From: Candidatus Aenigmatarchaeota archaeon | Lineage (GTDB): Archaea > Aenigmatarchaeota > Aenigmatarchaeia > PWEA01 > JACQIF01 | Direction of reading: 5' to 3' | Assembly (NCBI GenBank): GCA_016432325.1 | Contig: CP066684.1 | Coordinates: 329,018-393,017, forward strand | Length of the DNA stretch: 64,000 nucleotides | Part shown: piece by piece, positions 9,523 through 25,892 of the stretch | Numbering within the stretch: the first letter of the stretch is position 1 | Layout: every line of letters begins with the position of its first letter | Notes under the pieces: model-generated | Databases searched by the model: none | What the model saw: only the letters and a program-made list of their open reading frames with translations | Told to the model about the DNA's origin: nothing | Made by a program: the position numbers and the translations under genes

Positions 9523-10416
9523 ATGAAGATTCTTGTAACAGGAGGCTCCGGTTTTGTGGGGCGCAACCTGATTCCCAGGCTGTGGGACAGTCACGAGATA
9601 ATCAACCTTGATATCGCCGGAATGGACGATCCGCTGTTCAATTCAAAGGTTACGACCGTTCTTGCCGACATGACAGACTTCTCCAGCCTGCAAAAAGCCC
9701 TCGGAGAGCACATGAAAGGCGTGGACGTCGTTGTCCATCTCGCGGCCCTTTCCAGAGAGGCGCAGAGCAACACCATGCCGGACGATTACTTCAAAGTAAA
9801 CGTCGGCGGCACTTACAACCTGCTTCGTCTCGCGAAGGCCAACAATATCAAGAAATTCGTCTTCGCCTCGTCCTTCCTCATATACGGAAACCACGCGACG
9901 GATCGCATCACAGAACAGCATACGCCGCAACCGTCCACCGTCTATGCGGCGACAAAGGTGGCCGGCGAGGCGCTGGTGAGATCTTTCGGGACCCAGTACG
10001 GATTTGACTACGTGATTCTCAGGAAGGGCAACATATACGGCCACAAAGACACCCACAAGAGGATAATAGACATCATGATAGACAGGGCCAAGAAGGGCGA
10101 AGACGTCGTCTTGTTCGGCGACAAGACGCTGGATTTCGTGCATATCGACGACGCCGTAAAGGCGTATCTGGCCGCGATAGGCCTTCAGGGCTCGGGCACA
10201 TTCAACGTGGGCTCCGGAAAGGGCATGAGGCTCGAGGACATGGCAAACATGATAATAGGCGGACTCAAGTCCACGTCTGCCATCAGGAAGGCCGGGCCTG
10301 TCACCGGCGACTCGATGCATTTCGTCGCAGACCTGGCCACGACAGGCAACCATCTGGCGTATCGGCCAACGGGCGACGTCAGGAATTTCATACTGGAGAA
10401 GATATCCGATGCTTGA
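9523..10416 (+). CDS. NAD-dependent epimerase/dehydratase, candidate CDP-4-keto-3,6-dideoxyhexose 4-reductase (RfbJ/RfbS-like)
   Basis: MKILVTGGSGFVG..., ~297 aa SDR, immediately upstream of and overlapping E1 gene. Confidence 0.65.
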   Translation: MKILVTGGSGFVGRNLIPRLWDSHEIINLDIAGMDDPLFNSKVTTVLADMTDFSSLQKALGEHMKGVDVVVHLAALSREAQSNTMPDDYFKVNVGGTYNLLRLAKANNIKKFVFASSFLIYGNHATDRITEQHTPQPSTVYAATKVAGEALVRSFGTQYGFDYVILRKGNIYGHKDTHKRIIDIMIDRAKKGEDVVLFGDKTLDFVHIDDAVKAYLAAIGLQGSGTFNVGSGKGMRLEDMANMIIGGLKSTSAIRKAGPVTGDSMHFVADLATTGNHLAYRPTGDVRNFILEKISDA

Positions 10417-11725
10417 GGAAAAAAAGAGGCAGCTCTTCGAACTGCTCAAAGAGATAGCGAAAGAGAGGAACGCGCAGAAGCGATTCGCCCCAGGGGAAAC
10501 GCTGGTACAGTATTCGGGAGACCTCGTGGACGAGAAGGAGCTCATAGCCGCCGTGGACTCTCTGATAGGGGGAAGGCTCGCGTTCGGCCAGAAGGTCGAG
10601 GAGTTCGAGAAGGAATTCGCTTCTTATCTCGGCGCCAATGAGGCCATTGCCGTCAGCACGGGTTCAGACGCCTGTCTCCTCGCGATGCAGACCATGATGA
10701 ACAAGCACATCGACAACCCGATAAAACCCGGCGACGAGGTTGTCGTTTGCGCCCTGAACTTCGCGACTCCTGTCAGTTCCCTGGTATTCAGCGGCCTTAC
10801 GCCCGTCTTCGTGGACACCACGCTGGGCAACTACACCATCAACACAGACCTGATAGAGGACGCCATAACGGACAAGACCCGAATGATCATAGCAACGCAC
10901 CTTTTCGGAAACGTTGCCGGCATGAAGAAGATAATGGAACTGTCCAAGAAACACAACCTGCGCGTCCTGGAGGACTGCTGCGACGCTCATGGTTCAATGT
11001 ACGGCGACAGGCAGGTCGGTTCGATGGGAGACGCCGGAGCGTTCTCGTTCTATCCGGCTCATGGAATGACGATGGGAGGCGAGGGAGGCATCATATCGAC
11101 CAGTGACGAGGCGCTGGCGTATACGGCCCGTTCAATCCGCATGTGGGGCCGCGCCCTTCCGTGCAAGTACTGCGGCAACGACCTGTCGAAGGAGTGCAAG
11201 CTCAAACACAATCTCGACTTGGCCGGAATGGAGGACTACGACATAAACTATCTATTCGTCAATCTCGGATTCAACTCGAAGATAACCGAAGTGCAGGGAG
11301 CGTTCGGCATAGAACAGCTGAGGAAACTGAACGCGTTCAACAGGATAAGAGAAGACAACTTCAATTTCGTAGTGAAGGCTCTCAAGCCGTACGAAGACGT
11401 CCTGATACTCCCCGAAGCGACGCCCGGTTCCAAGCCGGCATGGTATAACATCCCGCTCACGATAAGAAAGGGTGCAGCGTTCACCCGCAAAGATATCCTC
11501 GACACGCTGAAGAAGGCCAGGATAGAATACAGGAACCTTTTCGCCGGGAACATCCTGAGACAGCCCGGCTACAAGAATATCAAGCACAGGGTCGCGAGTT
11601 CCCTGGAGAACGCGGATTTCACGACAGACAACTCCTTCTTCGTGGGATGTTATCAGGGAATGACTCCCGAGATGCGCGACCACATGGTGCAGACCATCAC
11701 GCGTTTCCTGGACTCGCGCAGGTGA
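10409..11725 (+). CDS. ddhC: CDP-6-deoxy-D-xylo-4-hexulose-3-dehydrase (E1, DdhC/RfbH-like; DegT family with His replacing PLP-Lys)
   Basis: 438 aa DegT-fold; SFYPAHGMTMGGEGG (His in Lys position); Cys cluster EDCCD...CKYCGNDLSKEC resembling E1 [2Fe-2S] ligands. Confidence 0.8.
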   Translation: MLEEKKRQLFELLKEIAKERNAQKRFAPGETLVQYSGDLVDEKELIAAVDSLIGGRLAFGQKVEEFEKEFASYLGANEAIAVSTGSDACLLAMQTMMNKHIDNPIKPGDEVVVCALNFATPVSSLVFSGLTPVFVDTTLGNYTINTDLIEDAITDKTRMIIATHLFGNVAGMKKIMELSKKHNLRVLEDCCDAHGSMYGDRQVGSMGDAGAFSFYPAHGMTMGGEGGIISTSDEALAYTARSIRMWGRALPCKYCGNDLSKECKLKHNLDLAGMEDYDINYLFVNLGFNSKITEVQGAFGIEQLRKLNAFNRIREDNFNFVVKALKPYEDVLILPEATPGSKPAWYNIPLTIRKGAAFTRKDILDTLKKARIEYRNLFAGNILRQPGYKNIKHRVASSLENADFTTDNSFFVGCYQGMTPEMRDHMVQTITRFLDSRR

Positions 11726-11772
11726 GTAACGCCATTTTTCTTCTTATTTAAGCGGGGACGTTATCCATTCGT

Positions 11773-12858
11773 ATGCAAAAAATCTGGCTCGGACGACTTG
11801 TACTGGTCCTGTTTACCGTTGCCGTTCTGACTGTAACGATTGAAACGGCGATAAATGAGTTCCCGATAATGGAAACCGATAGAAGAAGCGTTCCTCTGGC
11901 ATTCACGGGGGACGCGTACCTCCAATCGAAAGCGGTCAAAACGGACAGCAGCTTCTACACAGAAGACCTGAGAAAATACAGGGTTATAACGAACCCTCTT
12001 GCGTCGGGGGACGCGGACGCAACGATGAAAGAATATTACATCAGGGACGACACGCCGCAACGCGAGGTATTCGCCGTTGCCATCGGCGACTCTTTCACGT
12101 GGGGAACCAAGATGGATGTCGAATACGGCTACCCCAGGCTCCTGGAAAATACGGCGGGCCAGGACGTGGTGAATTTCGGGGTGCCCGGCGCAGGCCCCAT
12201 CGCGGAGTCGCGGATTCTGGAAACTTACGCCCTTAAACTCAGGCCCAAGGTTGTAATATGGCAGTTCATGACAAACGACATGAACGACGTCGTCCTGTTC
12301 CACTCCAGAGAAAACGTGACGCCTCCATTCTACAACGTCAGAAGATTTCTTGCGGGCAACTCCAACATCTACAACCTTGTCAAACGCGCGCATGCAACGC
12401 TCGTAATGGGACAGGACGAAGAGATGCCCGAAATAAGCGTCGGTGGTCGGAGATTCCTGCTGGAGAGCCGCGCCACGATAAAGCGGATGAATGACCACTG
12501 CAACACGCCCGCCGGCAGCGAAACCAAAGAACTGATCAGAGACGCCAAGGAGGCGAGCGAATCGAACGGCGCAAAGTTCGTTCTGCTGATGATACCTTCC
12601 AAAGCGGAGGTCTACCTGAACGAAACGAAAAGCCTCACGGGGCTGCCGGAGAACGAGATAACGTGCGTCACCGCCGAGATGAAGGAGTTCGCCTCGGAGA
12701 ACGGCATAGAATATATTGACATGGTTCCGGTGTACAGAAAAGCAATCTCCGAGGGAAGCGGCGTCTACCTGCCTCTCGACGGCCATCTGGGCGTGGAAGG
12801 CAACAACGTCACGGCACGCGCCATCTACGATTTTATCGTGCAGAACGGGTATGCGTAG
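11773..12858 (+). CDS. Membrane-anchored SGNH/GDSL-family hydrolase (candidate glycan O-acetyl esterase/transferase)
   Basis: N-terminal TM anchor; AIGDSFTWG (block I) and PLDGHL (block V) motifs. Confidence 0.6.
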   Translation: MQKIWLGRLVLVLFTVAVLTVTIETAINEFPIMETDRRSVPLAFTGDAYLQSKAVKTDSSFYTEDLRKYRVITNPLASGDADATMKEYYIRDDTPQREVFAVAIGDSFTWGTKMDVEYGYPRLLENTAGQDVVNFGVPGAGPIAESRILETYALKLRPKVVIWQFMTNDMNDVVLFHSRENVTPPFYNVRRFLAGNSNIYNLVKRAHATLVMGQDEEMPEISVGGRRFLLESRATIKRMNDHCNTPAGSETKELIRDAKEASESNGAKFVLLMIPSKAEVYLNETKSLTGLPENEITCVTAEMKEFASENGIEYIDMVPVYRKAISEGSGVYLPLDGHLGVEGNNVTARAIYDFIVQNGYA

Positions 12859-12915
12859 GCCCCGTCCTGAAGGGTTTATATAAGGAAACCGGAGAATCGA
12901 TTCGGGGACGGCAAG

Positions 12916-14490
12916 ATGAAGATTAACATCGACATGATGGGGGACAGGCGCGTCGCGTTCGCCCTTCTGATGGTAAGTTACGTCTTTCTCCTGTCGATAC
13001 CTCTTGTCGACGTTCCGTTGAACGAGGATTCGATGGCGTCTCTTCCCATAAAAATCTTCTTGAGCGAGAACAGGCTGGAATTCGTGCCTTTCATGTCGTT
13101 TACCTACTTCGCGCAGTTCGCCTACGGCCTGGCGTTCGCCGGTATCTTTGGGTTCAGTTTCGCCAACCTGCAGTTGGCCACGATAGTGCTATCGGGCCTG
13201 ACAGTAACCGCGTTCTATTTCCTTCTGCGAAGGTATGTGGGCAAGACAGAGTCCGCGCTTGGAGCATTGCTTCTTCTCACCAATCCGATATTCATCAACT
13301 ACAGCCATAGCTTTGCGTCCGACTTGCATGCGCTTTTTTACATAGTCCTTGCAACATACTTCGGCGCGCGGGCCGTCGAGACAAACAGCAACCGCCATCT
13401 CTTCATGTGCGTTCTGGCATCAACGGCCGGCTTCTACGTCCGCCAATACTCGATAGCCATTCTCGGCGGCGTCTTTTTGTACTACATCCTCGTCCAGAGA
13501 AAGAACCTGACAGCCAAGAAATTTGCCATAATGACGGTCATTCCTTCCATTGCCGTGATCGCCTGGCTGTACTGGGCGTTCTTCGTCAGTCCCAGAATAG
13601 TGCTCGACATCTACCATACGCCCGGACTTGGGTTGACGCAGCTCGCCAACGTTTCAAGGAGCCTCTTCTTCATGTCGCTGTTTTTCCTGCCGTTTGGGCC
13701 TGCCGTACTGGCGAATATAAAAACTGTCTTCGCGCGCGTGGACAGGAGAGCCTTTTGGGTGGGCGGTGCGGCAGTGGGAATATCCATCGCATGGCTGGCG
13801 CAACGCGCAATAACCGGAAAATATCTGCTGTATGGGGTTAGCGTAATCAATCAGAAGGGGATTGGCAACATAGGCATACTCGGCAGAGACGCGAGGGCGC
13901 CGATTTTCCCGGAGATGCTGTGGATACCGATTGTAGCGATGTCTCTCGTATGTCTGTTCTACCTTGCAGTCACCGTATACAACAACCGCAAAGACGCGAA
14001 GACTCTTCCCCTGATTTTCATAGCGCTGGCCTACCTCGTGGCGACAGATATCTCAAGGCTGACGATAGACCGTTACTTCATAGCCATGATGATTCCTCTG
14101 ACGCCGTTGTTGATGCGTGAACTGTCCAAAATGAGAAATTACCGTCTCCTGTTAGGAGGCGCTCTCGTCCTTATGGCCGTGTGGGGGTGGTATGGAACGT
14201 ACGAGCACGTGACGATAAACAAGGTGGGTTGGGACGCGACGCAGGAACTTGTGCGGAACGGGGTGGATGTTCAGGCCATCGACGGTTCCGTCGACTTCAA
14301 CGTATTTTACAGCACGTGCACAACGCAGAAGGTGTTCTGCGAGCTGAATTACGCGTGCGTTCCTGAAAAAACCGAATGCGACTACACGCTCACGTTCATT
14401 CCGGACGACGATGTTGTAACGTCGAGAGACTATTTCTCTCCGTTTGGCAACAAGAGAGGAACGTTATACGTGGTCCGTGCGAACGAATAG
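12916..14490 (+). CDS. GT-C fold glycosyltransferase (PMT/ArnT-like), paralog 2
   Basis: 524 aa polytopic; N- and C-terminal similarity to 1721-3289 protein; TATA 12876-12886. Confidence 0.6.
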   Translation: MKINIDMMGDRRVAFALLMVSYVFLLSIPLVDVPLNEDSMASLPIKIFLSENRLEFVPFMSFTYFAQFAYGLAFAGIFGFSFANLQLATIVLSGLTVTAFYFLLRRYVGKTESALGALLLLTNPIFINYSHSFASDLHALFYIVLATYFGARAVETNSNRHLFMCVLASTAGFYVRQYSIAILGGVFLYYILVQRKNLTAKKFAIMTVIPSIAVIAWLYWAFFVSPRIVLDIYHTPGLGLTQLANVSRSLFFMSLFFLPFGPAVLANIKTVFARVDRRAFWVGGAAVGISIAWLAQRAITGKYLLYGVSVINQKGIGNIGILGRDARAPIFPEMLWIPIVAMSLVCLFYLAVTVYNNRKDAKTLPLIFIALAYLVATDISRLTIDRYFIAMMIPLTPLLMRELSKMRNYRLLLGGALVLMAVWGWYGTYEHVTINKVGWDATQELVRNGVDVQAIDGSVDFNVFYSTCTTQKVFCELNYACVPEKTECDYTLTFIPDDDVVTSRDYFSPFGNKRGTLYVVRANE

Positions 14491-15600
14491 TCACGATGCG
14501 GCTTCCTCGTATATTCTCCTGAGCCTGGCGTTGCGCGCCTTTATCGAAACGGGGCCGTTCCTTACTCTGCGCAGACCCTCCCTCGCCATCTTCTTGCGCG
14601 CGGACGGGCTTTCGAGAAGCGCTGTCATGGTTTTAACCAGTTTGTCCTCGAACTTGGGGAAGCGATGGTTCCGTACGTATTCCCCAAAAGACTTCCAGCT
14701 GTCCCATTTGAACAGGTTCTTGTCGTTGTAGTAGGAAACCGGTGCGCGAACGTACGAACCGGCGTCTCCGAGAATCTCTGGGATAGCAAAGACGTCTGTC
14801 GCGACCACAGGCGTGGCCGTGGCCATCGCCTCCTCGTACACCATCCCAAACGTATCGTGGTACGAAGGAAGCACGAACAGGTCGGCTGTCGCATAGAACT
14901 CGTTGATAATGCGCGAGCGCGGCATTATGGGTTCACAGAATTCGACGACGTCTCCGTACTTCTCCACGAACTCCCGGGGAGCCCACGAAACGATTCTCAG
15001 CCGCGCGTCCATGCTCTTGCGCACGCGCAAGAACGCGTTTACGACTTCCCGCGCGCCTTTCTCATAGAAGTTGTTGCCGATGTAAAGCATGGTCGGCACA
15101 TCGTGTTTTTTCTTCCTGAAGTTTTTCAACGGCGCCATCGCAGGATAGACGACCTCAATCTTGTGCGCGAACGCGCGCGTGTCGAGACCGTTCAGCACGG
15201 AGCGCTTGGCCGCCTCAGACCACGGGAGTATCTTCCTGCAGTAGTCGGACGCCAGATACCGTTCCACCTTGCCCTTCACCTGATCGAGCCTGCGACCGGC
15301 CTCGAAACCCACAAACGAATTTACATGCTCCATGTCTATCACCCACGGCGACGCGTTCAGAGGTATGATACCGCTGCACGCGTGTATCAGCTGCGAACCG
15401 CGCTTCTGCGGCACGTAGACGGACTGCGGCGAACGCGTGAGCTTCAGGTAGTTGACAAAGACGCGCTTCTTCACGTATGTAACGAGGTCGTTTTTGCGCA
15501 CAGTCACGCTTCCTGGTATGTCATAGTTCACGCCGGCAGGCGGATAGCGAACGAGGTCGTCAAACGCGCTGTGATTGCCTTTCCTGAGTGTAACAATCAT
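14491..15600 (-). CDS. Glycosyltransferase family 4 (GT-B)
   Basis: C-terminal EX7E-type motif LPSYHDTFGMVYEEAMATATPVVATD. Confidence 0.8.
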   Translation of the reverse strand: MIVTLRKGNHSAFDDLVRYPPAGVNYDIPGSVTVRKNDLVTYVKKRVFVNYLKLTRSPQSVYVPQKRGSQLIHACSGIIPLNASPWVIDMEHVNSFVGFEAGRRLDQVKGKVERYLASDYCRKILPWSEAAKRSVLNGLDTRAFAHKIEVVYPAMAPLKNFRKKKHDVPTMLYIGNNFYEKGAREVVNAFLRVRKSMDARLRIVSWAPREFVEKYGDVVEFCEPIMPRSRIINEFYATADLFVLPSYHDTFGMVYEEAMATATPVVATDVFAIPEILGDAGSYVRAPVSYYNDKNLFKWDSWKSFGEYVRNHRFPKFEDKLVKTMTALLESPSARKKMAREGLRRVRNGPVSIKARNARLRRIYEEAAS

Positions 15601-16703
15601 CTATTCATCCTCTTTTCCAGCTCGTCGTAGAGGTCTATCAGCTTCTCTGCCTGCTTCTCATGATGGTACGTCTCATCGTAAACGCGTTTGGCGTTCTTGC
15701 CCAGCCTTTCCCGAAGCGCGCGGTCGTCGGCCAGCCTCATGAGCGCATACTTCAGGGATTCAACGTCATTCGGCCTCACGAGCAGGCCCGCCTCGCCGTT
15801 CTGCAGAATCGTCGATATGTCGCCCAGCTCGCTCGCGACAATCGCGCGGCCCATGGCCATGGCCTCAAATATCTTCGCAGGCGTCTGCGCGCGCGTGTAC
15901 AAAGTGTCTCTTGTAGGTATCGCGTAAATGTCCGCCATGAGCGTATAGTCCAGCGACTTTTCCCCCGTACGTTTCTTCAGCCATATCGTTTCCGGGCCTG
16001 ACATGGCCTTATACTTGGCCGTCTCGGCTCCGAGCTCGAACAGAACGAGCTTTATGTCTTCGCGCCCTGTCGCCTGCACGGCCTTGATGAGAACGTCTAT
16101 GCCTTTCGTTTCAAAGAGCGTTCCTACATGCGTCACGACAATCTTGTCCTCGAGGCCGAGTTTTGCGCGCAGCGCGTCCGCCGTTTTCTGAGTCGGCCTG
16201 TCCCTGTCGGTGTCTATCGGCTGGTAGATGAGATGTCCGCCGTACGTTCTCTGCATGAACCGCGACATCACTATCTTCTCGTCGGCGAATCTGTGGAACC
16301 AGTCGGCAATCCCCAGAACGAACCTCTTCAGAACGCTCTTGGGAGAGGCCTTGTCATAATCGTCTATTGTAATGACAAGCGGCTTGCGGAGAACGAACTT
16401 GGCCAGCGCGGAGACTGGAGCAGTGTGCGGCAGGAGCTTAAAACAGAATATCACGTCGAAGTCGTTGCGCAAGAGGCGCGCAAAGTTGCGCGGTATCAGT
16501 GTGAACGCGCCGAGACTCTTAGGCTTGCTTATCCAAGGCTCAAGACGCTCGACACGCACGGAGTTATCGTTCACAAAGATGCCTTCACCGAACGTGGGCC
16601 CGACTATCGTGACGTCGTGCTTCTTTTCCAGTATCTTCGCGTACGTGTAAGGAATGAGATACGAGCTTCCGTTCAACGACGGCGCAAGCATCAATATACG
16701 CAT
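15597..16703 (-). CDS. Glycosyltransferase family 4 (GT-B)
   Basis: GT4 C-terminal domain FEAMAMGRAIVASELG; overlaps downstream gene by 4 nt. Confidence 0.8.
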   Translation of the reverse strand: MRILMLAPSLNGSSYLIPYTYAKILEKKHDVTIVGPTFGEGIFVNDNSVRVERLEPWISKPKSLGAFTLIPRNFARLLRNDFDVIFCFKLLPHTAPVSALAKFVLRKPLVITIDDYDKASPKSVLKRFVLGIADWFHRFADEKIVMSRFMQRTYGGHLIYQPIDTDRDRPTQKTADALRAKLGLEDKIVVTHVGTLFETKGIDVLIKAVQATGREDIKLVLFELGAETAKYKAMSGPETIWLKKRTGEKSLDYTLMADIYAIPTRDTLYTRAQTPAKIFEAMAMGRAIVASELGDISTILQNGEAGLLVRPNDVESLKYALMRLADDRALRERLGKNAKRVYDETYHHEKQAEKLIDLYDELEKRMNR

Positions 16704-16712
16704 CCGAACCCC

Positions 16713-17408
16713 TCAAGACTTTTTTATGGCTTCGGCATATATCTCCGCACTGCGCCGCGGAAACGTCTTGCCCAGTCCGCCAATCGTACGTGAAACAGGA
16801 ACAAAATGGTCGAGCAGTATCATAACCTTCATTCCAAGAGGCGGGTTGAAGCCTCTCATCTCGACGCGCTCTACGCGCACGCCTGACGCCTCAAGCAAAC
16901 CCAGCAATTGTTCTTTCGTATATTCGCGCAGGTGCGTGCGGTCTGTGAAACGCAGTTCGTTGGGCAGCCCCAACATCGAATGGAATGCCGTGTGCAGATT
17001 GCGCAGGTTAGGCACAACCACCTCCATGATTCCGTCTTTTTTGAGCGCGGCCTTCATCCCCTCGATTACGCCGGCGTCGTCAGGAACGTGCTCTATAACG
17101 TGACGGCAGTGCACGCTGTCAAACGCGCCGTCCCTGAAGGGCATGTTCTGCGCGTCTCCGATGACCATCATGAGTTCGCGTCCGTATTTCTTTGACAGTC
17201 GCGTTGCTTTCAGCGCGTTCTCCGCGTTTATCTCCAGGCCGTACGCATCGTACCCTTCGGACTCGCGCTTCAGGACTTCGAATCCGAAGCTGGCGCCGAC
17301 GTCAAGGAAGCGTCTTCCATTGTTCGGTTTTCGTGCGACGCCCGCGAGCTGCGCGTATATCTTCTCGAGGTCCTGGAACAGCAGGCGGCGATAGACGCGC
17401 CTCGGCAT
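16713..17408 (-). CDS. Class I SAM-dependent methyltransferase (Methyltransf_11-like)
   Basis: FLDVGASFGFE...GAFDSV motifs; ATG 17408 preferred over TTG 17435. Confidence 0.6.
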   Translation of the reverse strand: MPRRVYRRLLFQDLEKIYAQLAGVARKPNNGRRFLDVGASFGFEVLKRESEGYDAYGLEINAENALKATRLSKKYGRELMMVIGDAQNMPFRDGAFDSVHCRHVIEHVPDDAGVIEGMKAALKKDGIMEVVVPNLRNLHTAFHSMLGLPNELRFTDRTHLREYTKEQLLGLLEASGVRVERVEMRGFNPPLGMKVMILLDHFVPVSRTIGGLGKTFPRRSAEIYAEAIKKS

Positions 17409-17427
17409 ACCAACTCTCTCCGCGCGT

Positions 17428-18444
17428 TCACTCAATGAAACCGGCCTCCTTGTAGAAATTTTGGAACGTCTTCTTCACGACTGGATAGTCGAACTGCTTG
17501 GCGATTAGTTTCGCCGCGGACGCGTGTTTTATGGCAGTCTCCCTGTCTTCCAGATACGCGCTTATGTTCTTCGCAAGCGCGTCTGCGTCGGTATTCTTGT
17601 GGAAGAGCGCCGCGCCTTCGAACGCCTCGAAAACCCCGAAATCCGGGAGGCAGAGCGGCACGCCGGCCGCAGCCGCCTCGTAGGCGCTCAAACAGAAGCA
17701 CTCGGGCCCGTCGTCAGACGAGTTCACGTAAACGGACGCAGCGCCGTACGCGGCGCGCAGTTCGGGCCATCCTATGTGGCCGGTGAGGACGAGGCCGTCA
17801 CCCTCCTGCTCGGCGAACTCCTTCGGAGGCAGCAGCCATTCCAGATTCTTGCCGGTCTCTAACGCCTTGCTCGTCTTCAGCTCGTCCGCATTCTTGAATC
17901 CGGTGGCGACCAACGTGACGCCTGCCTTCCTGCACGCCTCAAGAATCACAAGCGGGTTTTTCATCGCGCGTATTCCGACGCACAATGCAAACGGCTTGTC
18001 GCCAAGTCCGTACTTCCTGCGGAACTTTTCTCCGTCAACGGGTTTGGAAAAGTATCCGTAGTCCACCGGGATGGGCAGGACGCGTATCCGCCGCGCGTCG
18101 ACTCCATCCTGCATGTATCGTCTTTTCGCGTACGCGGTCTGCGCTATCACATAGGTAAAACGGTTGAACAGGAACCTGCGCACGAAGCGCGCGAGACCGC
18201 TGCTGCCGACCGTATTGAAGTGGGGCGTATATACGGAACGCCGTGCGAACAGGCCGGCCATCTCAGGGAAGGGAAAGCCGCGGCCGTGCGCGTGAACGCG
18301 CTGGCCAAGAACGGAGCGGACGTTTCCAAAGAAGTCTCCTTTCCTGACGACAACGATGTCCCCTCCTGCCGCGTCTGCGCAGATTTTCATGTAGTCTTCC
18401 CGCGGAAGGACGTCTATCGGATAGAAGTTCACGAGCGTGCGCAC
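17428..18444 (-). CDS. GT-B glycosyltransferase (GT4-like)
   Basis: C-terminal AYEAAAAGVPLCLPDFG motif; GTG start. Confidence 0.55.
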   Translation of the reverse strand: MRTLVNFYPIDVLPREDYMKICADAAGGDIVVVRKGDFFGNVRSVLGQRVHAHGRGFPFPEMAGLFARRSVYTPHFNTVGSSGLARFVRRFLFNRFTYVIAQTAYAKRRYMQDGVDARRIRVLPIPVDYGYFSKPVDGEKFRRKYGLGDKPFALCVGIRAMKNPLVILEACRKAGVTLVATGFKNADELKTSKALETGKNLEWLLPPKEFAEQEGDGLVLTGHIGWPELRAAYGAASVYVNSSDDGPECFCLSAYEAAAAGVPLCLPDFGVFEAFEGAALFHKNTDADALAKNISAYLEDRETAIKHASAAKLIAKQFDYPVVKKTFQNFYKEAGFIE

Positions 18445-18448
18445 GCAA

Positions 18449-19393
18449 TCACCAGAGCGCCAGCTGGCGCAGGCTGCCGTTCTTGTATTTCCTGACCTTC
18501 GGATACAGCTCCGCGAAGGCCTTTATGGCGCCTATGTAGTAGCTGAAGAAGCCGCCTCCCCGCTTGAGGGAGCGCGCGAAGTCGAAACCCAGCACAAGAG
18601 GAAACACCAGCGCGGCCTGCCACGTCGGCAGGTTTCTCCAGAACGTCAGGTACTTGTTGCGCATCGTGTACCAGTCGGACTTGCCCATGGCCTTGTTGGC
18701 CTTTATGCTCATGGAGCCCTTGTGGTATATGACAGAAGCCGGGCAGAATACTATCCTGTATCCGTTGTTGCGCAGTCTCCAGCAAAGGTCCAGCTCCTCG
18801 CCGTAAGTGAAATAGTGGGGGCAGATGTATTCCGGCATCTCGTCCAGCGCGGATTTCCTCAGCAACACCGAAACTCCCATCGCCCAGAACGTCTCCTTGC
18901 GCTTGCTGAACGCCGGACCGTCCTTCTCGCCGAAGCCGTCGTGATGCGAGACGCCGAATATGCACAGCCGTCCGCCTGCGAACTGTATCTTGTCATTGTT
19001 AACGCCGTCGTAAAATATCACCTTCGAAGCCGTCATCGCCACCCGAGGGTCGCTCATCGGCTCCATCAGCTCAGAAAGCCAGAGGCCGTCGCGTATTATG
19101 ACGTCGTTGTTCAGCAGCAGCACGAACGGACTCTTGGCTTCGCGCAGTCCGATGTTGGCCGCTCCAGAGAAACCGCAGTTGTCCTTTATGTCGTGGTAGC
19201 GTATCTCGAACGCCGCCTCCTTGCGAACGTCTTTTAGGCCCTCTTGGAGAGCGCGCTTGTTCTCCGGCGCGGAACCGTTGTCTATGAGAAGGACTTCGAA
19301 ATCTTCGAAACGCTGCTTTCTTATGGATCTCAGGGCGTCGAGCGTCTCTCCGTGCGTATTCCAGTTGATTATCGCTACCGTAATTTGTGCCAT
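18449..19393 (-). CDS. Glycosyltransferase family 2
   Basis: TVAIINWNT...VLLIDNGS...LLLNNDV GT-A motifs. Confidence 0.8.
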   Translation of the reverse strand: MAQITVAIINWNTHGETLDALRSIRKQRFEDFEVLLIDNGSAPENKRALQEGLKDVRKEAAFEIRYHDIKDNCGFSGAANIGLREAKSPFVLLLNNDVIIRDGLWLSELMEPMSDPRVAMTASKVIFYDGVNNDKIQFAGGRLCIFGVSHHDGFGEKDGPAFSKRKETFWAMGVSVLLRKSALDEMPEYICPHYFTYGEELDLCWRLRNNGYRIVFCPASVIYHKGSMSIKANKAMGKSDWYTMRNKYLTFWRNLPTWQAALVFPLVLGFDFARSLKRGGGFFSYYIGAIKAFAELYPKVRKYKNGSLRQLALW

Positions 19394-19456
19394 AGGACAG
19401 CCTTTCGACGCCTAAAGGGCGCGAAAGCAGGTATTTAAGGTTTTTACGGCCCAGAT

Positions 19457-20296
19457 ATGCAGGGTCTGAAGATGGAACAGATGAAAGTGGTCATATTCTG
19501 CGGAGGCACAGGAACGCGCCTCAGGGAACACACTGAACAGATGCCGAAACCGATGGTGCCGATAGGCAACAAACCCATACTGTGGCACATAATGAAAACG
19601 TATTCGCAGCACGGTTTCAAGGACTTCATACTGTGTCTCGGATACAAGTCCGAAGCGATAAAGCAGTACTTCCTGAACTACGAATGGCTGCATCACGACT
19701 TCACGATGAAGGTCGGGGACCGCCACCAGTGGACTCGCCACAACAACCATGAGATGGAAGACTGGAACATCACGTTCGCTTTCACAGGACACGACACGCT
19801 GACGGCCGGACGCTTGCTGCAGGTAAAGACGTATCTGGAAGGCCAGAAGAGCTTCATGTTCACATACGGGGATGGCGTTGCCGACATCGACTTGCGCGCA
19901 TTACTGGACTTCCACAAGAAGACGGGCAAGGTCGCCACGATAACAGGCGCGCATCCGACGTCGAAGTACGGAATGATTCAGGCGCGCGACGATCAGGTCA
20001 TCACAGGCTTCCAGCAGAAGCCCGCCCTGAGCGACTACATCAACATCGGCTTCGGCGTGGCGGAGAGCTCGATATTTGACAATATCAAAGGCAGGCGTCT
20101 CGTGATGACCGACGCGCCGGGCGCGGAAGAAACGGAAGACAGGATGATAGAAGACGTCTTCCTCGACCTGATAAACAAGCAGCAGCTCGCGATGTTCCAG
20201 CACGAAGGCTTCTTCCATCCGATGGACACTCACAAGGACTACGAAGATTTGAACAAGATGTGGAGCCGCGGCAACGCGCCGTGGAAGGTGTGGTGA
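19457..20296 (+). CDS. rfbF: Glucose-1-phosphate cytidylyltransferase
   Basis: Near-colinear match to RfbF/DdhA: KVVIFCGGTGTRL...KPMVPIGNKPILWHIMK...FMFTYGDGVADIDL...APWKVW; alternative start 19481. Confidence 0.9.
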   Translation: MQGLKMEQMKVVIFCGGTGTRLREHTEQMPKPMVPIGNKPILWHIMKTYSQHGFKDFILCLGYKSEAIKQYFLNYEWLHHDFTMKVGDRHQWTRHNNHEMEDWNITFAFTGHDTLTAGRLLQVKTYLEGQKSFMFTYGDGVADIDLRALLDFHKKTGKVATITGAHPTSKYGMIQARDDQVITGFQQKPALSDYINIGFGVAESSIFDNIKGRRLVMTDAPGAEETEDRMIEDVFLDLINKQQLAMFQHEGFFHPMDTHKDYEDLNKMWSRGNAPWKVW

Positions 20297-20300
20297 GCGC

Positions 20301-21266
20301 ATGACTTTCTGGACGGGAAAAAACGTGGCCGTTACGGGCGGAGCAGGCTTCATCGGCTCATGGCTCTGTAAAGGACTGGCAGATGCCGGCGCCAATGTGT
20401 TCGCTATGGACCTTCACGACCGCGGCCTCAAGATTCACGGCCTTGCGAACGTGCAGTACCTGAATTGCGACATCCGGGATGCGCACGCGATGCAACAGGC
20501 GCTGGGCTACCATGAAATCGAATACGTCTTCCATTTGGGCGCGCAGGCCATTGTAACGGTCGCGAACCGCGCGCCGGCGCTGACGCTGGATACGAACATC
20601 CGCGGCACGTGCAACGTACTGGAAGCGGCGCGAACGCTCGGAACCATCAAGGGAATCGTAATCGCATCGAGCGACAAGGCATACGGCGAGCACGAGACGC
20701 TTCCTTATTCCGAAGAGGCGCCTCTGATCGGGCGGCACCCTTACGACGTCTCCAAGTCGTGCACAGATTTGCTCGCACAGGCCTATCACAAGACATACAA
20801 GCTTCCTGTCGCTATCACACGCAACGGCAACGTCTACGGCGGAGGGGACGTGAACTGGAGCCGCATCATTCCCGGAACGATCCGCTCTGTCCTTCAGGGC
20901 GAGCGCCCGATAATCCGCAGCGACGGCTCGCCTACGCGCGACTATGTTTACGTGAAAGACATCGTAAACGCGTACATGCTCGTCGGCGAAAACATAAGCA
21001 AGACCGCAGGCCACGCCTTCAACTTCGGCTACAACGACCCGAAGAGCGTCCTGCAGATAGCAAATCTTCTCCTGAAAGCCGCCGACTCGGCGCTGGAACC
21101 GGTGGTCCAAGGCAACGCTCCCAACGAGATACAGAACCAGTACCTTTCATCCGAGAAGGCGCGGAGCGTGTTGGGATGGAAGCCTCAGTACGGGCTGGAC
21201 GCCGGGCTGAAGGAGACGATTGCGTGGTACCGCGATTATTTCGGAAAGACGACGCGTCAGGTTTAA
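20301..21266 (+). CDS. rfbG: CDP-glucose 4,6-dehydratase
   Basis: FWTGKNVAVTGGAGFIGSWL N-terminus and SDR catalytic region typical of RfbG/DdhB. Confidence 0.85.
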   Translation: MTFWTGKNVAVTGGAGFIGSWLCKGLADAGANVFAMDLHDRGLKIHGLANVQYLNCDIRDAHAMQQALGYHEIEYVFHLGAQAIVTVANRAPALTLDTNIRGTCNVLEAARTLGTIKGIVIASSDKAYGEHETLPYSEEAPLIGRHPYDVSKSCTDLLAQAYHKTYKLPVAITRNGNVYGGGDVNWSRIIPGTIRSVLQGERPIIRSDGSPTRDYVYVKDIVNAYMLVGENISKTAGHAFNFGYNDPKSVLQIANLLLKAADSALEPVVQGNAPNEIQNQYLSSEKARSVLGWKPQYGLDAGLKETIAWYRDYFGKTTRQV

Positions 21267-21291
21267 ATAGTTAACACTCGCTGGTGAAGAC

Positions 21292-22326: not shown

Positions 22327-22390
22327 AAACGTGCGATGGCTGCCCAGTCGCCTTTTTAAACTTTGTCTCATATCTCTGTCTTGTGATGCA

Positions 22391-22954
22391 ATGCCCTTCG
22401 CCTTTGAGAAACTAGCAATACCCGACGTCGTACTGGTGACACCTCACATCTTCGAGGACGCGCGCGGATTCTTCATAAAGTTCTATCACAGGGGCGAATA
22501 CGCAAAGAACGGAATCGCGTGCACGTTCGTCGAGGACAGCCACTCGCGCTCGCAGTACGGAGTGCTCCGCGGACTGCACTTCCAGAAAGGCGCGGCTTCG
22601 GAAGCGAAGCTCGTGCGCTGCATACGGGGGAGCGTCTACGACGTCGCCGTCGATTTGCGCAAGGGCTCGTCCACGTTCGGCAAGCATGTGGCCGTGGTTC
22701 TATCCGAACAGAACAAGAAGCTTCTCTTCATTCCGCGCGGCTTCGCACATGGCTTCTTGGTTACGAGCAAAGAAGGCGCGGAGATGCAGTACAAGATGGA
22801 CGCGCCCTACGCGCCGGACGCGGACGCGGGCCTCGCATGGAACGACCCGCGCGTCAGCGTACAATGGCCTATAAAGGCTCCAACGCTTTCAGAGAAGGAC
22901 AAGAAGCTGCCCGAATTGGCGGAACTGAAGGACGAGGAATTGCCTAAGCCATAA
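22391..22954 (+). CDS. Cupin sugar-nucleotide 3,5-/5-epimerase (RmlC family)
   Basis: PHIFEDARGFF...GLHFQ...RGFAHGF RmlC motifs; ATG 22391 with TATA at 22357-22367. Confidence 0.8.
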   Translation: MPFAFEKLAIPDVVLVTPHIFEDARGFFIKFYHRGEYAKNGIACTFVEDSHSRSQYGVLRGLHFQKGAASEAKLVRCIRGSVYDVAVDLRKGSSTFGKHVAVVLSEQNKKLLFIPRGFAHGFLVTSKEGAEMQYKMDAPYAPDADAGLAWNDPRVSVQWPIKAPTLSEKDKKLPELAELKDEELPKP

Positions 22955-23825: not shown

Positions 23826-23876
23826 ACAAGAGGAACGGCTGTAGGCTTTATATTGCTTGCGCACGAAGCTTCTGCC
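23826..23876. promoter_or_regulatory. 51-bp divergent promoter with shared near-palindromic TATA (CTTTATATTGC) for RmlD-like and C-methyltransferase genes
   Basis: TATA centred ~25 nt from both leaderless start codons. Confidence 0.5.
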
Positions 23877-25130
23877 ATGAAAATCGGCCGCTACAAAAAG
23901 AACGACCGCTGCCGCGCCTGCGACAGCACGAGCCTCAAGATGTTCCTCGATTTGGGGCTGATGCCTCTGATAAACAACATGCTGAACGAAGAGCAGCTCA
24001 AGGACGCCGAGAACGAACCACATTATCCTCTCGAAGTGTATCTTTGCACCAACTGCGGGCTCGTCCAGCTCATACACGTCGTGCCGCCGGAAGACATGTT
24101 CTCTCATTACGTGTACCTCACGTCGACGTCTTCAACGATGGTCGCGCATCTGAAGGGGATGACAGACGACATCTACGAACGCTTCCTGAAGAGCAAGACC
24201 GAAGCGATGGCCGTGGACATAGGCAGCAACGACGGCACGCTCCTGAAGGGCTACCTTCCGCACGGCGTGGACGTGCTGGGCATCGACCCGGCCGTTAACG
24301 TGGCTGAACTCGCAAACAAGTCCGGCGTGCGCACGATGGTGGCATTCTTCGGCGAGCAGACGGCAAAAGACGCGGCCAAGGCTTTCGGCAAGGCAGACGC
24401 GATAACGGCCACGAACGCCTTCGCGCACATAGACGACTGGGCGTCCGTGATACGCGGCGTCGACGCTCTCCTGAAGGACGACGGAGTGTTCGTGATAGAA
24501 GCGCCGTACCTCGTCGACCTGATAGACCACACCGAATTCGACACGATATACCACGAGCATCTTTCGTATGTCTCTCTCACGCCGCTCACCAAGCTCTTCC
24601 CCAAGTTCGGCATGGAGGTCTTCGATGTAAAGCGCCTCCCCATCCACGGCGGCTCTCTCAGAATCTTCGTCTGCAGGAAGGACGCGCACAAGATTACGAA
24701 GAACGTCACAGCGATGCTCGAGGACGAGGAGCAGCGCAAGCTGACGGAACTCGAAACCTACAAGCAGTTCGCCAAGCGCGTCGAGGACCTGAAGACGGAC
24801 TTCGTCAAGATTCTCCAAGGCTTCAAGAAACAGGGTAAGCGCGTGGCAGGCTACGGCGCGGCCGCCAAGGGGAACGTCCTCCTGAACTACTTCAAGGTCG
24901 GCCCGGAGACAATAGACTTCATCGCCGACAAGAATCCGCTGAAACAGAATCTATATACGCCGGGAATGCACATACCCGTTTACGCGCCGTCAAAGATAGC
25001 AGAGGAAGAGCCCGACTATCTGGTCGTGCTGGTCTGGAACATCGCCAAGGAGATTATGGAAGAGCAGCGGGCGTACAAAGAAAACGGCGGCAAGTTCGTC
25101 GTCCCGATACCGAAGCCGACGGTCGTTTGA
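23877..25130 (+). CDS. NDP-hexose C-methyltransferase-like (TylC3/NovU-type: Zn-ribbon + SAM MTase + C-terminal C-MT domain)
   Basis: N-terminal CRAC...CTNC zinc motif, class I MTase core (DIGSNDG), C-terminal domain; listed ORF 23319 is over-extended. Confidence 0.65.
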   Translation: MKIGRYKKNDRCRACDSTSLKMFLDLGLMPLINNMLNEEQLKDAENEPHYPLEVYLCTNCGLVQLIHVVPPEDMFSHYVYLTSTSSTMVAHLKGMTDDIYERFLKSKTEAMAVDIGSNDGTLLKGYLPHGVDVLGIDPAVNVAELANKSGVRTMVAFFGEQTAKDAAKAFGKADAITATNAFAHIDDWASVIRGVDALLKDDGVFVIEAPYLVDLIDHTEFDTIYHEHLSYVSLTPLTKLFPKFGMEVFDVKRLPIHGGSLRIFVCRKDAHKITKNVTAMLEDEEQRKLTELETYKQFAKRVEDLKTDFVKILQGFKKQGKRVAGYGAAAKGNVLLNYFKVGPETIDFIADKNPLKQNLYTPGMHIPVYAPSKIAEEEPDYLVVLVWNIAKEIMEEQRAYKENGGKFVVPIPKPTVV

Positions 25131-25196
25131 TTCCTCTTCGAACTGCGTTCCGGTGTCCTATTTAAAACTTTCTCCCGTTATACCTTATTGGTAATC

Positions 25197-25856: not shown

Positions 25857-25892
25857 ACGCGCTTTTATAGGCTTCTTCTGTATTTTGGTTGT

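Follow-up and report, generated by a model that had tools for sequence, protein, structure and literature searches.

The window, meaning the whole 64-kb stretch of DNA that was analyzed, belongs to an archaeon, because it contains archaeal marker genes (STT3/AglB, aIF2-alpha, PAC2, aIF5B, Trm61/GCD14, mevalonate kinase and HMG-CoA synthase) and because NCBI assigns QQG40202.1, which is identical to the E1-type protein described below, to Aenigmatarchaeota (DPANN). Positions 35-40945 form a glycan cluster of ~40 kb, with GT2, GT4 and GT-C enzymes, a flippase, an initiating Glycos_transf_4 enzyme and methyltransferases throughout. The genes considered were:

9523..10416, plus strand: extended SDR; 297 aa when counted from the called start, upstream of which the ORF begins with GTG at 9511; Pfam Epimerase, 8e-53
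10409..11725, plus strand: predicted E1-type 3-dehydrase of the RfbH/DdhC/AscC family, 438 aa; PF01041, 3e-80
11773-12858, plus strand: SGNH/AlgX-like acyl-modifying enzyme (Pfam)
12916-14490, plus strand: PMT_2 GT-C enzyme (Pfam)
14491-15600, minus strand: first GT4 (Pfam)
15597-16703, minus strand: second GT4 (Pfam)
16713-17435, minus strand: class I methyltransferase (Pfam)
17428-18444, minus strand: third GT4 (Pfam)
18449-19393, minus strand: GT2 (Pfam)
19457..20296, plus strand: rfbF, which opens its operon; RfbF/DdhA-type glucose-1-phosphate cytidylyltransferase; TIGR02623, 1TZF
20301..21266, plus strand: rfbG, CDP-glucose 4,6-dehydratase (RfbG/DdhB), short 'SSDKAYG' subtype, 321 aa; TIGR02622
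21292..22326, plus strand: NUDT22-like two-domain Nudix protein between rfbG and rmlC (HYS81_02275, annotated hypothetical)
22331..22954, plus strand: RmlC-type NDP-4-keto-6-deoxyhexose 3,5- (or 5-) epimerase; TIGR01221
22944..23825, minus strand: RmlD-type NDP-4-ketohexose 4-reductase; PF04321, 6e-61; PDB 1VL0, 2e-31
23877..25130, plus strand: SAM-dependent NDP-4-ketohexose 3-C-methyltransferase of the TylC3/MtmC/TcaB9/KijD1 family; PF08421, PF13489 and PF08484
25197..25856, plus strand: HAD_2-family hydrolase/phosphatase adjoining the C-methyltransferase gene on its 3' side; motif DMDGT; PF13419, 3e-19
38444..40945, minus strand: AglB/STT3 oligosaccharyltransferase at the end of the glycan cluster, likely the last enzyme to use the lipid-linked glycan; PF02516, 6e-41

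All genes named in the original prediction were present at their predicted coordinates as intact ORFs with coding-type codon bias (GC3 0.64-0.77), and they fall into two loci as proposed: the SDR and E1 ORFs, which share 8 nt (SDR end over E1 start), and rfbF onward, 8 kb away, with seven glycan-assembly genes (11773..19393) between. The rfbF, rfbG, Nudix and rmlC genes form one plus-strand operon with gaps of 4, 25 and 4 nt; the Nudix ORF (21292-22326), a ninth gene, had been missed. rmlD runs toward rmlC, the two overlapping by 11 nt, and away from the C-methyltransferase gene, from which it is separated by a 51-nt intergenic region that includes TTTATATT; the starts used for these two genes (23825 and 23877) make them shorter than the longest ORFs. 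A minus-strand ORF at 25185-26171, longer than the HAD gene, was rejected, having no family match and a translation that is not protein-like.

By sequence, rfbF clearly belongs to the glucose-1-phosphate cytidylyltransferase family: it scored 270 bits with TIGR02623 (cut-off 300) and 84 bits with the next family, matched PDB 1TZF at 5e-67 with the next match ~49 orders of magnitude away at 2e-18, and is 42-47% identical to rfbF in rfbF-rfbG-E1 operons. For rfbG, TIGR02622 gave 211 bits (cut-off 278) and the dTDP-type model 163; the best PDB match, 1WVG (3e-41), was nearly tied with the UDP-glucose 4-epimerase GalE 4ZRM (1.5e-40). Its motifs SSDKAYG/YDVSK (S-D-K, YxxSK) recur in all rfbG genes detected next to rfbF and E1 and are unlike STDEVYG (D-E) of dTDP-type dehydratases, and the protein is 47-52% identical to rfbG in the rfbF-rfbG-E1 operons of Bryobacterales, Planctomycetota, Anaerolineae and Patescibacteria. 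These results uphold the view that neither enzyme is of the dTDP or UDP type. Both proteins, as well as RmlD and E1, score below their NCBIfam equivalog cut-offs.

Judged by its sequence, and as part of the whole-pathway reading given below, the 438-aa protein is probably an E1-type PMP-dependent NDP-4-keto-6-deoxyhexose 3-dehydrase. It scored 419.8 bits against NCBIfam RfbH, 3 bits under the cut-off of 423, which accounts for its generic pipeline name. The best solved relative is Yersinia E1 (PDB 3BCX; E = 6e-94, 318 bits, 38% identity), with which it is colinear across residues 3-433; the same search gave 7e-47 for the SpnQ-like entry 9WVY and 6e-45 for ColD. The His reported at the position of the PLP-binding lysine was confirmed, since in the motif SFYPAHG His218 pairs with Yersinia His220 (HMMER alignment to 3BCX), no Lys appeared on realignment, and the His is invariant in the 32 relatives aligned; His218 is the predicted catalytic base. 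The reported Cys pattern is likewise present, as CC(190/191)...C252-x2-C255-x7-C263, with C191, C252 and C263 invariant in the 32 relatives and the fourth position always Cys or His. In the closest clade, whose members bearing names are archaeal, the loop reads WGRA-x-P-C-x2-(C/H)-x7-C, the second Cys being replaced by His in some members. Cys191, Cys252, Cys255 and Cys263 are candidate [2Fe-2S] ligands; cluster binding is termed putative because the loop differs from that of Yersinia E1 (C-x2-C versus C-x-C, with the first Cys shifted) and because of the Cys-to-His changes.

The proposed RmlC, RmlD, SDR and Zn-ribbon C-methyltransferase were each borne out by family profile matches. RmlC scored 226.5 bits with TIGR01221 (over the cut-off of 155.75), matched PDB RmlC structures at E values down to 7e-50 and is closest in similarity to true dTDP-rhamnose epimerases, while RmlD scored 194 bits with TIGR01214, under the cut-off of 224. 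The C-methyltransferase has an N-terminal Cys4 zinc ribbon and matched MtmC (4RV9, 6e-95), KijD1 (3e-82) and TcaB9 (1.5e-78) over its full length. C-methyltransferases of the TylC3/MtmC family act on 2,6-dideoxy or 3-amino substrates, as PDB entry names also indicate; we know of no 3,6-dideoxy substrate for this family. The SDR has the S...YxxxK triad and lacks a D-E or D-K dehydratase motif; it matched no specific NCBIfam equivalog, and its top PDB match was the generic 6DNT. Orthologues with 41% identity lie immediately 5' of E1 in L004/L007, and L002/L006 carry one in the cluster as well. The SDR is a candidate 4-ketoreductase or epimerase acting on the E1 product. The Nudix protein, which had no Pfam match, is probably a nucleotide-sugar pyrophosphatase/hydrolase of a rare type. 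Whether the HAD hydrolase is a pathway member is uncertain.

The absence of E3 had been singled out, and within the 64 kb it was seen: Fer2, FAD_binding_6 and NAD_binding_1 domains were absent from the window ORFs scanned, and a regex search of the window turned up no ferredoxin motif in any real gene. As an oddity it did not stand, because nearly all of the 88 related loci, including an annotated Azospirillum rfbFGH operon, lack E3 in cis, and because SpnQ is reduced by ferredoxin/ferredoxin reductase or flavodoxin/flavodoxin reductase instead of E3 (PMC8987622); a missing cis E3 is a common arrangement. Two relatives, L021 and L087, carry a short FNR-like reductase gene directly 3' of E1.

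Related loci show the same genes in other arrangements. L005, whose E1 is 68% identical, has E1-GT2-RmlC-RmlD-C-methyltransferase-flippase-rfbG-rfbF inside 8.5 kb; Woesearchaeota L082 has a single operon rfbF-rfbG-RmlC-RmlD-E1, and the order in Thermoplasmatales L087 is E1-FNR-like-rfbF-SDR-RmlC-rfbG. E1 lies <10 kb from a C-methyltransferase orthologue in nine distinct loci (L004/L007, L005, L022, L046, L048, L073, L081, L084 and L086), synteny that supports the suggestion of a C-methyl-branched product. In L004/L007, the closest relative from Aenigmatarchaeota, neither rfbF nor a D-K rfbG lies within 10 kb of E1, so another nucleotide carrier is possible for this E1 clade.

We consider it probable that the window encodes an archaeal CDP-3,6-dideoxyhexose pathway within a ~40-kb dolichol-linked/N-glycan assembly cluster. 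Points that weigh against this reading are the sub-cut-off NCBIfam scores, the near tie of rfbG with GalE, the 8 kb between the SDR-E1 and rfbF/rfbG loci, the gene content of L004/L007, the altered Fe-S loop, the similarity of RmlC to dTDP-rhamnose epimerases and the substrates known for the C-methyltransferase family. By its family, RfbF would convert Glc-1-P and CTP to CDP-D-glucose, and RfbG, of the short S-D-K type, would by motif and orthology convert this to CDP-4-keto-6-deoxy-D-glucose. E1 would build a PMP-ketimine at C4, His218 would take the C4' proton and the 3-OH would leave; the glucoseen intermediate would then gain two single electrons through a [2Fe-2S] cluster on Cys191, Cys252, Cys255 and Cys263, yielding CDP-4-keto-3,6-dideoxy-D-glucose. 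This cluster and chemistry are proposed because of the Yersinia E1 precedent, residue conservation being what was observed. As with SpnQ, a general electron donor of the cell, for example a ferredoxin system, may supply the electrons. The MtmC/TcaB9-type methyltransferase would methylate C3, which is alpha to the 4-keto group; C5 epimerization would fall to RmlC and C4 reduction to RmlD, giving an ascarylose-type CDP-3,6-dideoxy-L-hexose, probably 3-C-methylated, with step order and stereochemistry as presumed here. The SDR overlapping E1 may offer an alternative 4-reduction or epimerization. The assignment of tailoring steps to the E1 product, and with it the identity of the sugar, is our inference. 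Going by fold, the Nudix protein, perhaps with the HAD hydrolase, may trim or recycle CDP-sugar pools.

The first three enzyme families are those of Yersinia pseudotuberculosis and Salmonella (DdhA-D / RfbF,G,H,I; AscA-F), with a D-K-motif CDP-glucose 4,6-dehydratase and a PMP/[2Fe-2S]-type E1 that has His for Lys, and the RmlC-fold epimerase and SDR 4-reductase recall the ascarylose branch. Unlike those systems, the window cluster has no E3 (AscD/DdhD/RfbI), is divided between two modules with 8 kb between them, has the C-x2-C-x7-C E1 loop with its shifted first Cys and a short rfbG (321 aa), and adds genes for a 3-C-methyltransferase, a NUDT22-like Nudix protein and a HAD protein; its host is archaeal, and the acceptor is likely a dolichol-linked N-glycan, not LPS O-antigen. 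SpnQ, the TDP-4-keto-2,6-dideoxyglucose 3-dehydrase of the spinosyn forosamine pathway, is also an E1-type enzyme with the His and [2Fe-2S] motif and, being served by general reductase systems, has no dedicated E3 (PMC8987622). Its substrate is a dTDP-2,6-dideoxy sugar and its gene belongs to a secondary-metabolite cluster, whereas the window E1 lies near CDP-glucose genes. Compared through 9WVY (a putative NDP-4-keto-6-deoxyglucose-3-dehydratase, the sole SpnQ-like solved entry), the similarity is 163 bits versus 318 for Yersinia E1. L-mycarose/D-tetronitrose-type pathways (TylC3, MtmC, TcaB9, KijD1) share the full-length homologous Zn-ribbon SAM C-methyltransferase, and there too it is accompanied by an epimerase of the RmlC fold and a 4-reductase of the RmlD fold (TylK/TylC2-type). 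Their sugars are dTDP-linked and lose the 2-OH through a Nudix-fold 2,3-dehydratase (EvaA/TylX3), whereas in the window CDP is the predicted nucleotide, C3 would be deoxygenated by E1, and the Nudix protein resembles NUDT22, not the 2,3-dehydratase. Identity to human NUDT22, a UDP-glucose/UDP-galactose hydrolase, is only ~15%, and unlike that enzyme the window protein does not conserve the Nudix-box Arg, is archaeal and lies within a CDP-sugar operon.

A possible but less likely reading is that two products are drawn from one CDP-4-keto-6-deoxyglucose pool, with E1 and the SDR making a plain paratose- or abequose-type CDP-3,6-dideoxy-D-hexose and RmlC, the C-methyltransferase and RmlD making a separate vinelose- or evalose-type CDP-6-deoxy-3-C-methyl-L-hexose in which the 3-OH is retained. 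The overlapping SDR-E1 pair and the tight rmlC/rmlD/C-methyltransferase unit are two physical modules 10 kb apart, the former conserved as a pair in L004/L007 and the latter found again as a unit in L005, and the cluster's glycosyltransferases are numerous enough for several different sugars. MtmC, TcaB9 and KijD1 methylate a heteroatom-bearing C3, as their PDB names also indicate, which counts for two products. Against this, in Woesearchaeota L082 E1, RmlC and RmlD belong to one operon and E1 lacks an SDR partner of its own, E1 is only 1-3 kb from the C-methyltransferase gene in L005, L022 and L046, and L005, which lacks the SDR orthologue, still keeps E1 with RmlC, RmlD and the C-methyltransferase.

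It is improbable that the E1-like protein needs no redox partner and works in the manner of ColD, by PMP-dependent dehydration followed by enamine hydrolysis, with PMP regenerated from glutamate and the cysteines serving as structural or non-redox metal ligands. The lack of E3 and ferredoxin genes in the 64 kb, the remodelled Fe-S loop with its second Cys changed to His in several clade members, and the His-for-Lys substitution of ColD itself (PMC8987622) would fit, but similarity is 318 bits to E1 versus 157 to ColD, C191, C252 and C263 are invariant in archaeal and bacterial relatives alike, the fourth position holds one of two good Fe-S ligands, the cluster motif is wholly absent from ColD (PMC8987622), and the FNR-like reductase after E1 in L021 and L087 argues for a redox-dependent family. 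Least credible is an ordinary sugar aminotransferase making a 4-amino-4,6-dideoxyhexose, for which the NCBI label 'aminotransferase class V-fold PLP-dependent enzyme', the DegT/DnrJ/EryC1 fold, the sub-cut-off RfbH score and in vitro transamination by SpnQ without reductase (PMC8987622) can be cited, but against which stand His218 in 32/32 relatives, the finding that Lys at the Yersinia E1 site confers transamination, and then only non-catalytically (PMC8987622), and PDB scores of at most 158 bits for true aminotransferases versus 318 for E1.

In the original prediction, no report of such a pathway in archaeal glycans was known. Of the 80 loci with E1 relatives returned by a reference-genome scan, 22 are archaeal, and several archaeal E1 relatives carry the automatic RfbH name; CDP-dideoxyhexose genes are not rare among uncultured archaeal genomes, and therefore the novelty lies not in gene presence but in the chemistry and literature, which are missing. 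Under the favored reading of a CDP-3,6-dideoxyhexose pathway, this tiny, uncultured organism is likely to produce a rare sugar of the O-antigen type, perhaps with a methyl branch, which, from its genomic context, the GT2, GT4 and PMT_2 enzymes, the flippase and AglB would put onto surface glycoproteins.

The genes of 9.5-25.9 kb, including all those named in the original prediction, were found intact in the window, with a codon usage typical of genuine coding sequence (GC3 0.64-0.77). They are listed below in window coordinates; E1 denotes the RfbH/DdhC/AscC family, SDR the gene overlapping E1, and C-MT the Zn-ribbon C-methyltransferase.

9511/9523-10416, + strand, module A: extended SDR with an 8-nt overlap with the start of E1
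10409-11725, + strand, module A: 438-aa DegT-fold E1 candidate (PF01041, 3e-80)
Between modules A and B: seven glycan-assembly genes, namely an SGNH/AlgX-like enzyme, a PMT_2, three GT4, a methyltransferase and a GT2
19457-20296, + strand, module B: rfbF-like, first gene of a + strand operon
20301-21266, + strand, module B: rfbG-like, 4 nt 3' of rfbF
21292-22326, + strand, module B: 344-aa ORF without family, 25 nt after rfbG
22331-22954, + strand, module B: rmlC, 4 nt after the 344-aa ORF
22944-23825, - strand: rmlD, convergent with the rmlC operon
23877-25130, + strand: C-MT, divergent from rmlD
25197-25856, + strand: HAD_2 hydrolase with motif DMDGT, directly 3' of C-MT

The divergent spacer between rmlD and C-MT is 51 nt and includes TTTATATT. 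The longest ORF at the HAD_2 locus, on the minus strand at 25185-26171 (328 aa), matched no family and had a Cys/His/Arg-rich translation; the real gene there is probably the + strand HAD_2, and the minus-strand ORF probably not a gene. An 87-nt tRNA-Asp (anticodon atc) predicted by ARAGORN within the E1 coding sequence, at 10597-10683 (+), is likely a false positive; Rfam had no match there and found nothing in the window as a whole.

The window DNA is archaeal and carries the markers STT3/AglB, aIF2-alpha, PAC2, aIF5B, Trm61/GCD14, mevalonate kinase, HMG-CoA synthase and FtsZ. An identical E1 was found at NCBI as QQG40202.1, on a contig of 874,869 bp, under the name 'MAG: aminotransferase class V-fold PLP-dependent enzyme [Candidatus Aenigmatarchaeota archaeon]'; the phylum is placed in kingdom Nanobdellati (= DPANN). 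The modules lie in a continuous glycan cluster at 35-40945, whose ~39 genes take up ~41 kb or some 4.7% of that contig and which contains a flippase, an initiating Glycos_transf_4, many GT2/GT4/PMT_2 enzymes and several methyltransferases, with AglB/STT3 at its end. Four of its enzymes are PMT_2-type GT-C, and a CmcI/rhamnosyl-O-methyltransferase homologue lies at 7860-8588 (-). Recent transfer from bacteria was rejected, as base composition does not shift (GC 0.54-0.56 versus 0.55-0.59 in the flanks) and the top ten E1 relatives, ranked in a scan of reference genomes, are all archaeal.

E1 has the DegT scaffold, and its residues 3-433 are colinear with 4-432 of the Yersinia E1 (PDB 3BCX) at 38% identity. 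Among solved structures 3BCX was far ahead (E 6e-94, 318 bits), compared with 163 bits for a SpnQ-like dehydratase, 157 bits for ColD and at most 158 bits for true aminotransferases. Against the NCBIfam RfbH equivalog NF011936 it scored 419.8 bits, 3 below the cut-off of 423, and because of this narrow miss it bears the generic NCBI name 'aminotransferase'. The original prediction had placed a His at the PLP-lysine position, and this was borne out: His218 falls in the column of Yersinia E1 His220, which is Lys in the H220K mutant entry 3BB8, and is kept in 32 of 32 aligned relatives, as are C191, C252 and C263. Correct alignment restored no lysine to E1, so the reading as a dehydrase was not refuted.

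E1 carries four Cys that are candidate ligands (C191, C252, C255 and C263), but in a spacing and with a first loop position that differ from those of Yersinia E1. The spacing here is C-x60-C-x2-C-x7-C; in Yersinia E1 the [2Fe-2S] ligands are, in the numbering of the original prediction, C193, C251, C253 and C261 (C-x57-C-x1-C-x7-C). Relative to bacterial E1, the loop Cys at WGR +2 is gone and a new Cys stands at +7, so that the bacterial motif WGRD-C-x-C-x7-C becomes WGRA-x-P-C-x2-C-x7-C in the closest clade of the window's E1, whose named members are archaeal. Four members of that clade (alignment rows P0007, P0008, P0009 and P0014) have His for the second loop Cys, giving C-x2-H-x7-C, which would form a 3Cys-1His [2Fe-2S] site. 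The intermediate sequences P0017-P0019 combine the bacterial Cys position with the archaeal one. Four potential ligands are thus always kept, and the predicted Fe-S site is a variant one.

For rfbF, TIGR02623 gave 270.3 bits over profile positions 1-255 of 255, below the curated cut-off of 300.25 bits, with the next family at 84 bits; around residue 215 the protein has some 10 inserted aa. Among PDB entries its solved relative 1TZF matched at 5e-67 and the next at 2e-18. The family assignment, as a predicted glucose-1-phosphate cytidylyltransferase, is unambiguous. By score alone the assignment of rfbG as a predicted CDP-glucose 4,6-dehydratase is less clear: TIGR02622 was its top model at 211.5 bits, yet below the cut-off of 278.45 (dTDP-glucose dehydratase model, 163.5), and 1WVG matched at 3e-41 with GalE close behind at 1.5e-40. 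The protein carries the motifs SSDKAYG and YDVSK. In the fetched loci every SDR adjoining rfbF and E1 has [ST][ST]DK.Y, dTDP-type dehydratases have STDEVYG, and epimerase-like SDRs have neither; the Ser/Thr-Asp-Lys motif has a catalytic role in the Yersinia and Salmonella structures of CDP-glucose dehydratase, with Asp-Glu in its place in dTDP-glucose dehydratases and no such acid/base pair in epimerases. Moreover, rfbG shares 47-52% identity with its counterparts in tight rfbF-rfbG-E1 operons of Bryobacterales, Planctomycetota, Anaerolineae and Patescibacteria (loci compared: L017, L019, L020, L023, L026, L029, L033, L034, L036, L038 and L039). Given the 1TZF gap, the S-D-K motif and the identity to rfbG of these operons, neither gene groups with dTDP or UDP enzymes.

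The tailoring genes were assigned in the same way. RmlC scored 226.5 bits with TIGR01221, above the cut-off of 155.75, and matched PDB RmlC structures at 7e-50; RmlD is a clear RmlD_sub_bind protein, and no RmlA or RmlB was found in the window. A second RmlD-like ORF of 244 aa at 34631-35365 (+) covers only positions 3-151 of 287 of the RmlD_sub_bind profile (the N-terminal half) and may be truncated or diverged. C-MT matched PF08421, PF13489 and PF08484 (Zn-ribbon, class I SAM and C-terminal Methyltransf_14 domains), is a full-length homologue of three sugar 3-C-methyltransferases, MtmC (4RV9, 6e-95), KijD1 and TcaB9, and has a Cys4 ribbon (C-x2-C...C-x2-C) that aligned with that of MtmC; by homology it is a putative NDP-hexose 3-C-methyltransferase. 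The SDR adjoining E1 is generic, with an S/Y/K triad and without the dehydratase motif. It gave no specific match to RfbS, RfbJ or TyvE and, at 24% identity, is not orthologous to the reductase 3' of Azospirillum rfbH.

The original prediction had also singled out an E1 without its usual reductase partner, E3. In the Pfam-scanned ORFs of the 64-kb window there was indeed no Fer2, FAD_binding_6 or NAD_binding_1 domain; the absence is not distinctive, as E3 is missing in cis from most related loci. A classical E3 was not found across 88 related loci (regex in 85 loci, Pfam lists for five, and PGAP annotation), the regex combining the plant-type Fer2 motif with FNR motifs and, as it had no positive control, being used only alongside Pfam and PGAP. 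Nor was one found within 9 kb of the rfbF-rfbG-rfbH-oxidoreductase genes of a PGAP-annotated Azospirillum plasmid. SpnQ, an E1-type enzyme, works with general pairs of a reductase and either ferredoxin or flavodoxin (PMC8987622). Because most related loci and the Azospirillum operon lack E3 and SpnQ runs on general pairs, absence of E3 in cis is ordinary. Directly 3' of E1, a Thermoplasmatales MAG (L087, 1887-2567, +) and a Planctomycetia MAG (L021, 11335-12051, +) encode a short FNR-like protein of ~230 aa, with NAD_binding_1, with or without FAD_binding_6, and without a ferredoxin domain; the two are homologous (25% identity, E 1e-6) and may represent a 'mini-E3'.

The 344-aa ORF between rfbG and rmlC (HYS81_02275, named 'hypothetical') had no match in Pfam or NCBIfam, and a word-indexed protein search returned only itself. 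Its family is very rare, with 11 other proteins at E <= 0.001 among 1.84 billion representative proteins, about 8 of them alignable. The Woesearchaeota locus L082 has a homologue (14136-15038, -) 3 kb away from its E1 operon, and another homologue adjoins a CmcI-type methyltransferase gene. The ORF carries a Nudix-like box, and AlphaFold with a 9-sequence alignment gave pLDDT 72 and pTM 0.77 (single sequence, pLDDT 30), the predicted fold agreeing with that of the two-domain UDP-glucose hydrolase NUDT22 of humans much more closely than with other Nudix folds. We read it as a putative nucleotide-sugar pyrophosphatase that would regulate or proofread the CDP-sugar pool; with the HAD_2 hydrolase it could form a route from NDP-sugar through sugar-1-phosphate to free sugar. 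Identity as an EvaA/TylX3-type Nudix 2,3-dehydratase, which would have meant a mycarose-like pathway, was rejected on the far better match to NUDT22. A role as an E3 substitute was rejected on the same fold and the lack of Fe-S or flavin motifs.

Relatives of E1 were sought in GTDB species representatives with peptide patterns that biased the scan to this E1 subtype; 22 of the 80 loci were archaeal, as were all of the top ten ranked. The 22 come from Aenigmatarchaeota, Iainarchaeum, Pace-, Woese- and Nanoarchaeota, AR10, Bathyarchaeia/Bathyarchaeota (nine loci), Halobacteriales and Methanosarcinales. Among close relatives, L005, whose E1 is 68% identical, has the order E1-GT2-RmlC-RmlD-C-MT-flippase-rfbG-rfbF within 8.5 kb; another Aenigmatarchaeota MAG (L004/L007, E1 55% identical) keeps the SDR-E1 pair, in the order SDR-SDR-C-MT-PMT_2-SDR-E1. 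Other archaeal loci are Woesearchaeota L082, a single operon rfbF-rfbG-RmlC-RmlD-E1, and the Thermoplasmatales L087, which reads E1-FNR-like-rfbF-SDR-RmlC-rfbG. At seven Bathyarchaeia loci (L012, L014, L015, L018, L025, L032 and L035) E1 is flanked by an STDEVYG 4,6-dehydratase and an SSCE[IV]YG SDR, without rfbF, which suggests dTDP-linked, SpnQ-like use. Since E1 is there paired with a D-E dehydratase and no rfbF, the E1 family is probably not confined to a single nucleotide carrier. In nine distinct loci, Marinobacter L086 among them and L004/L007 (one locus under two ids) counted once, E1 has an orthologous C-MT no more than 10 kb away. In an uncultured archaeon whose E1 is 71% identical (L002), the E1 locus is followed, at 13953-21320 (-), by very large RHS/YD-repeat and TcdB/SpvB-like toxin-type genes (729 aa and >1562 aa), an unusual cargo beside an archaeal glycan cluster.

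From the family assignments and conserved residues observed here we infer the chemistry, step order and stereochemistry of a pathway. RfbF would convert Glc-1-P and CTP to CDP-Glc, and RfbG would convert CDP-Glc to CDP-4-keto-6-deoxy-Glc. A PMP adduct would then form on E1, the 3-OH would be eliminated by His218, and two single electrons passed from a general donor through the variant [2Fe-2S] site would give CDP-4-keto-3,6-dideoxy-Glc. C3-methylation, C5-epimerisation and C4-reduction would yield an ascarylose-type CDP-3,6-dideoxy-L-hexose, probably 3-C-methyl; the SDR linked to E1 would be another option for reduction or epimerisation. The main rival holds that there are two products, E1 and the SDR making a plain 3,6-dideoxy-D-hexose while RmlC, C-MT and RmlD make a 6-deoxy-3-C-methyl-L-hexose. 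We consider this unlikely. Extended to its full scope, the single-product pathway would mean that DPANN and other uncultured archaea make a CDP-3-C-methyl-3,6-dideoxy-L-hexose, undescribed in any organism, through an E3-independent E1 with a rebuilt C-x2-C/H-x7-C loop fed by the general ferredoxin pool, that a hitherto unrecognised NUDT22-like Nudix polices the CDP-sugar pool, and that the sugar, the first archaeal 3,6-dideoxyhexose, is borne on the surface glycoproteins by which these episymbionts touch their hosts. Taken jointly, these propositions are doubtful and we put them forward tentatively.

3,6-Dideoxyhexoses are textbook O-antigen determinants of bacteria. A survey that covered 303 genomes of archaea and 12,636 of bacteria counts them among rare sugars, seen for the most part in Salmonella and Yersinia, and notes that Archaea lack most rare sugars (PMC7725333). 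The original prediction knew of no report of this pathway in archaeal glycans, and full-text literature searches likewise found no paper linking archaea to a CDP-3,6-dideoxyhexose pathway. None of the literature matches named a 3,6-dideoxy-3-C-methylhexose; by title and abstract they deal with drugs or extracts containing 2,6-dideoxy sugars such as mycarose. Archaeal homologues of E1 are already auto-named RfbH in databases; the pathway kind itself is already known, and the variant features here are the Fe-S loop, the C-MT association and the Nudix gene. The known mechanism is unaltered and the significance is therefore moderate.

NCBI under-annotates this E1 as a generic aminotransferase, and the rare NUDT22-like Nudix family found in the operon merits characterisation. 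For the chemo-enzymatic preparation of CDP-deoxy sugars, these enzymes would be a compact source. The locus and its 22 archaeal relatives suggest that the view of these sugars as rare reflects sampling and E3-dependent definitions of the pathway, E1-type deoxygenation genes occurring across DPANN, Bathyarchaeia, Thermoplasmatales and others. That an episymbiont genome of ~0.87 Mb devotes ~40 kb to glycan assembly, with a predicted Fe-S radical deoxygenase and a C-MT, points to the importance of the surface glycan in contact with the host.
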